Assembly: GCA_016839815.1 (NCBI GenBank)
Contig: JAEOTM010000134.1
Span: 1 to 26,722, forward strand
Length of the DNA: 26,722 bases
Reading direction: 5' to 3'
From: Candidatus Hodarchaeota archaeon
Lineage (GTDB): Archaea; Asgardarchaeota; Heimdallarchaeia; Hodarchaeales; Hodarchaeaceae
How positions within the stretch are numbered: the first letter of the stretch is position 1; every line of letters begins with the position of its first letter. The notes under the pieces were generated by a model, which saw only the letters and a list, made by a program, of their open reading frames with translations, did not search any database and was not told the DNA's origin. The translations under genes were made by a program, and so were the position numbers. Positions 7,931 through 9,133 of this stretch are shown in pieces.

Positions 7931-8650
7931 TTAAAGAATGACTACGACAACCACTAAGGCAATCACAGATCCTGCTAGAAGGGCTAAAAGAGTTCGATTC
8001 TGAGTTAGCTTTCTAGAAATTTTTGTTAGTGTAGATTGAATTTTTTGTAGTTTATTATCGACGTCTGTAATTTTTGTATCAATTTGATCGATTTTAACTC
8101 CCTGCTCGTCAAGTCTCCTAGTCAATGTAGCTAAATTGGCTGAAATATTATTCATTTGAGCATTCATTTGATCCATTGATTCCAAAAATGAATTTTCAAG
8201 CATCTGAAGCCTCTCTTCAAGTGTAACTACATTTTTCGAAGTTATCGCTTCACCCGGATAGGCTAATTCATAAATTCTATTTCCTACTTCTTCACCTTTG
8301 AGAGGACTCGCCTGAAGATCCATAGACTCAATAGATTCACCAATATTCGTCAAAGTGCCACGTAAAGATTTCATTTTAAGCTTTGTTTCACTAAGCTCAT
8401 TTAATTTCTCATTTTGAAGACGAATAATAGGGGGTTGAATGAGTCTAGGTAGATTGGCAATGATTCTGGAAGAAAGAGAGCGTTTATCTATAACTTGTGA
8501 TTTAAAACCTTCAGATATGTCATCAGTCATATTTTCCATTGATTCGAGTACAGAATGTAAATCATTGACAAATCCTTTAATCATTTCTTTTTCTGTTTGC
8601 TCTGCAGGTCTTTTAAACCATTTAGATAACCTCTTTGTCAGTAAGGCCAA
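7931..8650 (-). CDS. Tail-anchored coiled-coil protein with a Q-SNARE-like motif
   Basis: Heptad region aa 159-211 with central LDEQG, a basic linker and a C-terminal TM helix (aa 221-239); no signal peptide. TTG start preceded by a strong AAGGAGG SD. Confidence 0.8.
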   Translation of the reverse strand: MALLTKRLSKWFKRPAEQTEKEMIKGFVNDLHSVLESMENMTDDISEGFKSQVIDKRSLSSRIIANLPRLIQPPIIRLQNEKLNELSETKLKMKSLRGTLTNIGESIESMDLQASPLKGEEVGNRIYELAYPGEAITSKNVVTLEERLQMLENSFLESMDQMNAQMNNISANLATLTRRLDEQGVKIDQIDTKITDVDNKLQKIQSTLTKISRKLTQNRTLLALLAGSVIALVVVVVIL

Positions 8651-9133
8651 AAGTTGATCCTCCTTCTCATCGTCACTTATTTTTTGTACGATTTCTATTT
8701 CTCAAAAGAAAAAACTTTTCATTGAGAAAGACTAAATTAAATATAGATTTCATGATTGAATAATATTTTGTTTAACCTAAGTAATAATAAAGATGAGGGT
8801 TAATTGAATCAAATTAATTAGTTCCTAATATTCAAATCTATCCATCTAGACTTGTTAAATTCATTCTCATTCACTTTTAGCTCGAAATCAGTCTATTCGG
8901 TTTTTTTACTTTCATTAGTTTTAAAACAACCTTTGAAATAATGAGTGGGCTTAAGATAATTCATTCTACATTACCAAATCTTTATTTAAAACTAAGAGAT
9001 CAAAAGAATGTACTACTGAAAATCATCTAAAAACAATTTTGAATTAGTGATATAATCGAAGTTTCCATGAGTTGTTCAAATAATATACCCTGAGACTCAT
9101 ACAAAATATCAAAAAACTATGGATTGAACATGA

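Follow-up and report, generated by a model that had tools for sequence, protein, structure and literature searches.

The window analysed here is the whole contig JAEOTM010000134.1 (assembly GCA_016839815.1) of a Candidatus Hodarchaeota archaeon, a stretch of 26,722 nucleotides. SNAREs were long held to be a eukaryotic invention. A gene for a tail-anchored SNARE-like protein was identified on the reverse strand of this archaeal contig, and the encoded protein very probably belongs to the published family of Heimdallarchaeial prototypic SNAREs (HPS), as an orthologue of HPS1. The family is already known, with a crystal structure of an orthologue, and the window adds one more orthologue to it. 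An initial annotation, made from the nucleotide sequence, had proposed a tail-anchored SNARE-like protein of Q type in an archaeon, undifferentiated as to subtype and possibly homo-assembling; for this member of the Asgard archaea, the proposal matches the published work on HPS1. It had also suspected that the family might not be new, and both HPS1 and HPS2 were indeed found to be published. Apart from its suggestion of an Habc domain in the N-terminal half, the interpretation given there is essentially right.

Tail-anchored SNARE-like proteins were identified in Heimdallarchaeota by Neveu et al. (bioRxiv 10.1101/810531; Curr Biol 2020). PWI47941.1 of Heimdallarchaeota archaeon B3-JM-08 was named HPS1, with its SNARE region at amino acids (aa) 159-211, and was reported in the same study to enter into mixed complexes together with neuronal SNAREs. 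In the preprint of Bentahar et al. (2026, bioRxiv 10.64898/2026.10.19.760048), HPS1 is described as a very stable homotetramer, which unfolds at or above about 95°C. The crystal structure, at 2.4 Å, is a parallel four-helix bundle of 16 layers (-7 to +8) with four Q183 at its centre. A F155W variant was used and residues 157-215 were simulated in the same preprint, and the family was reported to have about 50 members, found in Heimdallarchaeia only and usually with one member per genome. Molecular replacement with syntaxin-6 yielded the structure, and the core volumes were SNARE-like. The orthologue was targeted to the endoplasmic reticulum in human cells, and in published trees the HPS family forms its own clade outside Qa, Qb, Qc and R. 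The numbering of HPS1 and of the window protein is identical, with the SNARE region at 159-211, F155, Q183 in the 0-layer and the bundle at 157-215. Both have the short linker and the C-terminal transmembrane domain (TMD), and both belong to a clade of 239-aa proteins.

A homologue search covering 5.8 billion proteins gave 67 close homologues with expectation (E) values of 1e-61 to 1e-141 and 53-87% identity, many of them of exactly 239 aa. The named ones were proteins from Hodarchaeales, Hodarchaeota or Heimdallarchaeota metagenome-assembled genomes (MAGs), annotated as hypothetical or with stray coiled-coil names. About 20 further clusters of full-length relatives, with 24-39% identity and aligned end to end, were found by an exhaustive HMMER search. 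A scan for related loci with the single protein yielded 8 named loci. A protein of 239 aa from the MAG 'B3_Heim', with F155 and Q183, is 71% identical to the window protein and 77% identical in the motif; with 23% of the motif residues different, the two are different species-level sequences. This MAG is presumably the source of HPS1; a comparison of isoelectric points, 6.1 for the B3_Heim motif and 8.1 as published, gave no confirmation that the two proteins are identical. PWI47941.1 was absent from the members of 10 clusters, and the figure of 71% refers to the B3_Heim protein and not to HPS1 proper. No entry for the HPS1 crystal structure was met in the sequence searches of the PDB.

SNARE register and structure models

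With Q183 as layer 0, the layers -7 to -1 are M159, M162, M166, I169, L173, L176 and L180, and the layers +1 to +8 are I187, I190, I194, V197, L201, I204, L208 and I211. All 16 layer residues and the codon of Q183 (CAG, 8104-8102) were checked by script and are as the initial annotation had given them. Layer conservation was analysed in 40 family members with 24-85% identity to the window protein. At 12 of the 15 hydrophobic layer columns, V, I, L, M or F was present in 100% of the members. The layers +3 and +4 reached 97%, with one exception each, and layer +6, where nine members have A or T, reached 78%. In columns b, c, e, f and g on either side, the hydrophobic share was mostly 0-15%. Position 183 was Q in 38 of the 40 members and H in the remaining two, and Q was invariant in the close (Hod) clade, for which 28 sequences were aligned. 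F155 was likewise invariant within the Hod clade, and G184, next to Q183, was nearly invariant in the family. The two members with His at the 0-layer, P0068 (L006/L029) and P0079, have the sequences EEHG and GDHG, and one of them is a sister-family protein that keeps the Roadblock neighbour described below.

By the rule given in the initial annotation, layer -3 is occupied by Phe in Qa-SNAREs and by a small residue in Qb- and Qc-SNAREs. Leu was found at this layer in 36 of the 40 members, which fits a protein undifferentiated as to subtype. A check of the rule in Yadav et al. 2024 turned up general remarks about asymmetric layers but not the specific residues.

The linker SRKLTQNRT (212-220) and the transmembrane stretch (221-239), which runs to the C-terminus, were confirmed from the sequence. 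A spacing of 9 residues separates I211 from L221, where the TMD starts. K214 to T220 of the linker are invariant in the Hod clade, and for T216 and N218 the conservation in the wider family is still 90% or more. The columns of the tail anchor are mostly 80-100% hydrophobic family-wide, the exceptions being the small residues A223, A226, G227, S228 and A231. No hydrophobic core of a signal peptide is present, the N-terminus being basic and amphipathic when read from the sequence, in agreement with what had been claimed for it. Mean column identity was 66% in the motif-plus-anchor half and 41% in the N-terminal half. Between the N-terminal domain and the SNARE helix lies a hinge, YELAYPGE, in which the 28 Hod-clade sequences show no variation at Y127, E128, P132, G133 and E134 and hardly any at A130 and Y131; the structure models break the helix at 131-137. 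Neither the KLTQNRT linker nor the YELAYPGE hinge is mentioned in the HPS publications consulted.

The own genome of the window protein (4.24 Mb) was scanned for the 3-4 spacing of SNARE layers with Q or R at the centre, using all 6,428 stop-to-stop open reading frames (ORFs) of at least 80 aa, or 1.56 M residues. This gene was the sole ORF that couples the motif to a C-terminal anchor. The other pattern matches in the genome, one strict and three permissive, were all polytopic membrane proteins, hydrophobic throughout, and were rejected as SNARE candidates. The 16-layer register is more than chance, both by conservation and by the genome scan. The hydrophobic register was found to run past layer -7, through F155, L151, L148, L144 and V141, the spacing at 151/155/159 being a 4-4 stutter, and to extend C-terminally to L215. 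As the register exceeds the layers -7 to +8, the '16 layers' follow the SNARE convention and cover most of a coiled coil that is somewhat longer.

Residues 150-216 were modelled in four copies with the 40-row alignment. The interaction prediction score from aligned errors (ipSAE) was 0.82, compared to 0.56 for the best of three controls. Three runs shared 100% of the contacts, with a partner pLDDT (predicted local distance difference test) of at least 86. The contacts of lowest error pair the same residue of neighbouring chains (187, 190, 194, 197, 201 and 204), and the modelled bundle is therefore parallel and in register, with all 16 layer residues within the interface. The four-helix assembly put forward in the initial annotation is reproduced in the model. 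In the calibration of the score, 20 of the 30 proteins whose solved structures are pairs of one chain attained the mark, as did 1 of the 23 solved as single chains; this calibration was built on two copies and is only roughly applicable to the four-copy model. Part of the high score may also come from a resemblance to SNARE bundles of solved structure. The parallel homotetramer is a measured property of HPS1 and a modelled one of the window protein.

Residues 1-152, modelled with a pLDDT of 82.8, form two long helices, 20-54 and 74-109, and two short helices, 119-130 and 138-151. In the N-terminal half (about aa 18-110), which the initial annotation had considered possibly Habc-like, the confidently modelled part is a long two-helix hairpin (20-54, 74-109), and the models give no support to an Habc domain. 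A fold search with this model resulted in generic helical hairpins, among them CHMP4B (Z 10.1, root-mean-square deviation 2.3, 79 aligned residues), and no Habc chain was found among the matches returned. In the model of the full-length monomer the helices close into a four-helix bundle of generic type, and the SNARE helix is bent at 183-189. When this model was searched in Foldseek, VIA and Atlas, it gave generic four-helix bundles only, with template modelling (TM) scores below 0.5, and the best fold match (Z 12.8) was within the noise stated for helical bundles.

Proposed mode of action and alternative explanations

The protein would be made in the cytosol, without a signal peptide. Its 19-residue C-terminal anchor would then be inserted into the membrane, probably via the Get3/ArsA pathway (a Get3/ArsA homologue was found in the genome with 281 bits), leaving the whole helical part in the cytoplasm. 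Residues from about 157 to 215 of four identical chains would zipper in parallel and in register, to form a bundle with a core of 15 hydrophobic layers and one central polar layer of four Q183, and the short invariant basic linker would couple the bundle rigidly to the membrane anchors. Trans bundles between two membranes, for example of two plus two chains, may possibly drive or assist the fusion of internal vesicles or protrusions, a step we infer tentatively. An archaeal Cdc48-type ATPase might recycle the bundles, and the N-terminal hairpin and the invariant YPGE hinge might regulate their assembly.

Some of the observations weigh against this account, with regard to both descent and function. 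In Pfam, PF05739 scored 16.2 bits on the window protein, below the cut-off of 26.8, and PF12352 scored 20.8-22.5 bits, below the cut-off of 27.1. Both models also match ordinary bacteria and archaea at the same level. All Pfam matches are sub-threshold and scattered over many coiled-coil families, of which the unrelated DUF1664, HAP1_N and COG6_N score as well or better. In a set of 28 family members, PF05739 was found in 20 and PF12352 in 16 (E <= 0.01; best E 2.7e-5 and 1.5e-6, respectively), and the Synaptobrevin and Sec20 models recurred too among the weak matches. A profile of the motif plus anchor matched SNAP-25 (1.3e-4), syntaxin-6 (1.5e-4) and syntaxin-7 (6e-4) in the PDB, with syntaxin-13, SNAP-29 and syntaxin-1 in the same range (1e-4 to 3e-2), and the EEQG of a designed t-SNARE was aligned on the EEQG of the family. 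In the same search chemoreceptors, reovirus sigma-1 and designed coiled coils equalled or beat the SNAREs. The full-length profile gave SNAREs at E 0.014-0.7 only, mixed with other coiled coils; residues 155-239 were aligned on residues 3-87 of VAMP2, 85 residues each covering motif and TMD, a figure for the extent of the alignment only. A single-sequence search of the PDB gave no significant eukaryotic SNARE, the E values of the best matches, IpaB and sigma-1, being no lower than 0.02. Because generic coiled coils score like SNAREs, sequence statistics alone do not prove SNARE homology. The initial annotation had named a loss of Q183 among homologues and a better match to generic trimeric coiled coils among the findings that would refute its reading; Q183 and the layers proved conserved, and the sequence profiles were not cleanly separated from generic coiled coils. 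By language-model features of residues 140-239, 24 of the 30 nearest named clusters were in the set carrying PF05739, which is borne by 14-17% of the members in the listed rows of that cluster set, and the remaining six were in another set, which has a syntaxin-18 family cluster at its top. The neighbour score was 0.91, with 184-189 of 256 features shared. A generic tail-anchored coiled coil, in which a heptad repeat with a single buried polar residue beside a membrane anchor had evolved independently, with a convergent likeness to SNAREs and no common descent with those of eukaryotes, would agree with the scattered Pfam matches, with the profile E-values of chemoreceptors and reovirus sigma-1, with the generic helical bundles of the fold searches and with a heptad register longer than the 16 canonical layers. 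Such convergence is nevertheless improbable. Q, or rarely H, stands exactly at the central layer in all clades, and QG is present in the aligned designed t-SNARE as well. The SNARE, V-SNARE_C, Synaptobrevin and Sec20 families of Pfam all recur among the weak matches, and the language-model neighbours are nearly all eukaryotic SNARE clusters. HPS1 joins neuronal SNAREs in mixed complexes, and its structure, with SNARE-like core volumes, could be solved with syntaxin-6. The family is, moreover, confined to the archaeal class closest to eukaryotes. That the nearest named language-model neighbours are eukaryotic could also be read as a sign of a eukaryotic SNARE brought into the bin by contamination or recent horizontal transfer. 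This explanation is effectively refuted because the archaeal synteny is conserved: the gene sits among the archaeal genes for TFIIE-alpha, Roadblock/LC7, polyprenyl synthetase and GrpE on the contig of 26.7 kb, and the gene order is kept in several independent MAGs, including a chromosome of 1.39 Mb. The TTG start with a Shine-Dalgarno site, the absence of a significant sequence match to any eukaryotic SNARE and the separate clade of the family in published trees likewise speak against it.

With regard to function, it is quite possible that the protein is a genuine HPS1-family homotetramer and no fusogen. It would then act as a cis scaffold, tether, membrane-shaping or anchoring element, for example in protrusions or by recruiting cytosolic partners through the N-terminal hairpin, and fusion would have arisen only after Q/R duplication in the eukaryotic stem. 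Four identical tail-anchored chains could also assemble in cis, in one membrane, without any fusion, and there is one gene per genome in the own genome and nearly all relatives. The HPS1 complex is extremely stable and murine NSF fails to disassemble it (Bentahar et al. 2026 preprint), which is awkward for a fusogen that has to cycle. Fusion was not demonstrated in that preprint, and fusion activity is absent from the published record. A Sec1/Munc18 (SM) homologue was not found in the genome, a weak negative given a completeness of 89.5% and a control search that was also silent. The closed four-helix bundle modelled for the full-length monomer fits a scaffold too. Against a cis scaffold, the geometry of motif, linker and anchor is that of fusogenic SNAREs and is strongly conserved, the linker being invariant in the clade. 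A parallel, in-register bundle puts all anchors at one end, as zippering needs, and vesicle-like compartments in cultivated Heimdallarchaeia are cited by Bentahar et al. (2026 preprint).

Genomic context and distribution

The positions of the gene, its parts and the neighbouring features are collected in Table 1. The start codon is TTG at 8650-8648 on the reverse strand, and this start is sound because homologues are conserved from residue 1. The SNARE gene gave one significant match in the window's own genome and is thus single-copy there. Matches of the alpha-SNAP model PF14938 were 400-900-aa TPR proteins; the model also matches control bacteria, and these candidates were rejected.

Table 1. 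Positions of the SNARE gene, its parts and neighbouring features in the window
Feature	Positions	Strand	Remarks	Basis
Whole gene, 239 aa, tail-anchored SNARE-like protein, HPS1-family orthologue (very probable)	7931..8650	-	Stop codon 7933-7931 included	ORF list, translation
Ribosome-binding site AGGAGG	8659..8664	-	8 nt upstream of the TTG start	Read from sequence
N-terminal helical hairpin, aa 18-112 (modelled)	8315..8599	-	Helices 20-54 and 74-109 with a conserved LP..QP loop between them	AlphaFold2 (AF2), pLDDT 81-95
Hinge motif YELAYPGE, aa 127-134	8249..8272	-	Between N-terminal domain and SNARE helix	Alignment, models
SNARE motif, aa 159-211	8018..8176	-	Layers -7 to +8	Layer residues, conservation, modelled interface
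0-layer glutamine Q183 (CAG)	8102..8104	-	Counterpart is Q183 of the HPS1 crystal structure	Conservation
Basic juxtamembrane linker SRKLTQNRT, aa 212-220	7991..8017	-		Conservation
C-terminal transmembrane tail anchor, aa 221-239	7934..7990	-	Ends at the stop codon	19 residues, none charged and most of them hydrophobic
Roadblock/LC7 protein, 157 aa	7320..7793	-	Downstream neighbour, context only	Pfam Robl_LC7, 29.8 bits, above cut-off
S8 subtilase, 1050 aa	9134-12286	+	Divergent from the SNARE gene, 483-nt spacer	
DUF7121 coiled-coil protein, 331 aa	3276-4271	-	Same syntenic block in L004 and L005	

The Roadblock/LC7 gene lies 137 nt past the SNARE stop codon on the same strand and is followed by TFIIE-alpha. 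The order SNARE, Roadblock, TFIIE-alpha is kept in other members of the window's genus. A second family of the order is represented by two genomes, one of which also keeps the SNARE-Roadblock pair; in the other (G078) the Roadblock orthologue is on another contig. In three further SNARE-bearing families the Roadblock neighbour is absent. Adjacency of the two genes as a family-wide feature was rejected on these grounds; being patchy, it is a feature of the lineage and not evidence of a family-wide functional link. Within the genus the neighbouring Roadblock protein, with 88-100% identity, is much better conserved than the SNARE, with 58-87%; in the sister family its identity is 53-59%. Outside the order, Roadblock relatives were found at about 32-41% identity only, those in SNARE-less families included (38-41%), and a second Roadblock paralogue with 43% identity is present elsewhere in the genome (G000:C122:26292-26666). 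Judged by these sequence comparisons, the downstream Roadblock/LC7 protein is an order-specific paralogue. It is conceivable, but very unlikely, that the SNARE and the downstream Roadblock protein form a two-gene module in Hodarchaeales. The Roadblock protein would then work in trans as the longin domain does in eukaryotic R-SNAREs, binding the hairpin or the YPGE hinge and switching the SNARE between an open tetramer and a closed monomer, the latter made up of the hairpin and the SNARE helix bent at Q183-G184. If true, both SNARE autoinhibition and the control of trafficking by longin and roadblock domains would have a precursor in this archaeal module.

On the other side of the SNARE gene, the S8 subtilase has an N-terminal hydrophobic segment and a C-terminal transmembrane segment with a basic tail. 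The same neighbour is found in L005, and in L004 a Cas12f1/TnpB-like fragment and an amidohydrolase are found in its place. The syntenic block in L004 and L005 comprises HAD hydrolase, polyprenyl synthetase, TFIIE-alpha, Roadblock and SNARE genes.

The distribution of the family was surveyed in 400 genomes of the phylum, 83 of them in the class. A strong match was found in 37 of the 83 genomes of the class, and two weak matches (E about 1e-6) were found among the other approximately 317 genomes. In the window's own family (f1), 19 of 21 genomes had a match, followed by 11 of 12 in f6, 3 of 3 in f5, 2 of 2 in f2 and 1 of 1 in f3. No match was found in two well-sampled families of the same class, f4 (0 of 31) and f7 (0 of 12), the zero count for f4 including single-contig genomes that are 92-93% complete. 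The remaining families of the class, five in number, all carry the SNARE, a distribution that agrees with Bentahar et al. (2026 preprint). The SNARE-less families f4 and f7 suggest that the gene was lost there or that it arose later in the history of the class.

In two relatives, L012 (3267-3932 and 4001-4717, assembly GCA_048938655.1) and L019 (2978-3697 and 3757-4470), two SNARE paralogues lie in tandem on the same strand. The pairs have diverged to 27% and 36% identity. Every tandem copy keeps the 0-layer Gln and the tail anchor, and one copy is without about 25 residues of the hairpin loop. Duplication in two genomes is mentioned in the preprint (bioRxiv 10.64898/2026.10.19.760048), and GCA_048938655.1 is not one of the two named there. 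In L012, which is one distant relative, the gene of an Arf/Ras-type small GTPase (8463-8717) lies about 3.7 kb from the SNARE pair.

Significance and comparison with known SNARE systems

With a single-gene homotetrameric SNARE in the archaeal class closest to eukaryotes, there is a concrete basis from which vesicle fusion could have arisen. This argument is already in print, with biochemistry and the crystal structure of an orthologue. The points added here are small ones: two SNARE-less families, a Roadblock neighbour specific to the order, and an N-terminus modelled as a hairpin. The diverged tandem paralogues of two relatives are possible natural experiments in the step from homo- to hetero-oligomer.

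Within the family, HPS2 (OLS22354.1, Heimdallarchaeota LC_2) and the other SNAREs of the Heimdall and Kari clades have the same domain order, 0-layer Q, hydrophobic layers and tail anchor as the window protein. They are far more divergent, being full-length relatives at 24-39% identity, some with lysine-rich N-terminal extensions, and their genes are without the Roadblock neighbour. HPS2 was found to bind neuronal SNAREs more selectively (Neveu et al.).

SNARE-like heptads in coiled-coil membrane proteins are also known from bacteria, namely Chlamydia IncA, Legionella LegC3 and the Legionellales SNAREs. These are effectors of pathogens, acquired from or mimicking eukaryotes, and their topologies differ from that of the archaeal protein. 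IncA and LegC3 appeared far down the lists of the fold searches, and a sequence relation to the bacterial SNARE-like effectors was not detected in this analysis.

The architecture also resembles that of the eukaryotic Q-SNAREs, such as syntaxin-6 (Qc), SNAP-25 (Qb/Qc) and syntaxin-1, -7 and -13 (Qa), which gave the best matches of the motif profile among natural SNAREs (1e-4 to 2e-2). The archaeal complex is built of identical chains around a 4Q layer, whereas the eukaryotic complex is a heteromeric QabcR assembly with a 3Q:1R layer, and the subtype-specific asymmetric layers of eukaryotic SNAREs are missing from the archaeal SNARE. Where eukaryotic syntaxins have a three-helix Habc domain, the models of the archaeal protein show a two-helix hairpin at the N-terminus. 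Eukaryotic SNAREs have SM and NSF partners, and none were evident for the archaeal protein. Shared with the eukaryotic Q-SNAREs are the motif of 53 residues with 16 heptad layers, the central Gln and the QG..ID.I that follows the 0-layer, the basic linker of about 9-10 residues, the tail anchor and the parallel four-helix bundle.

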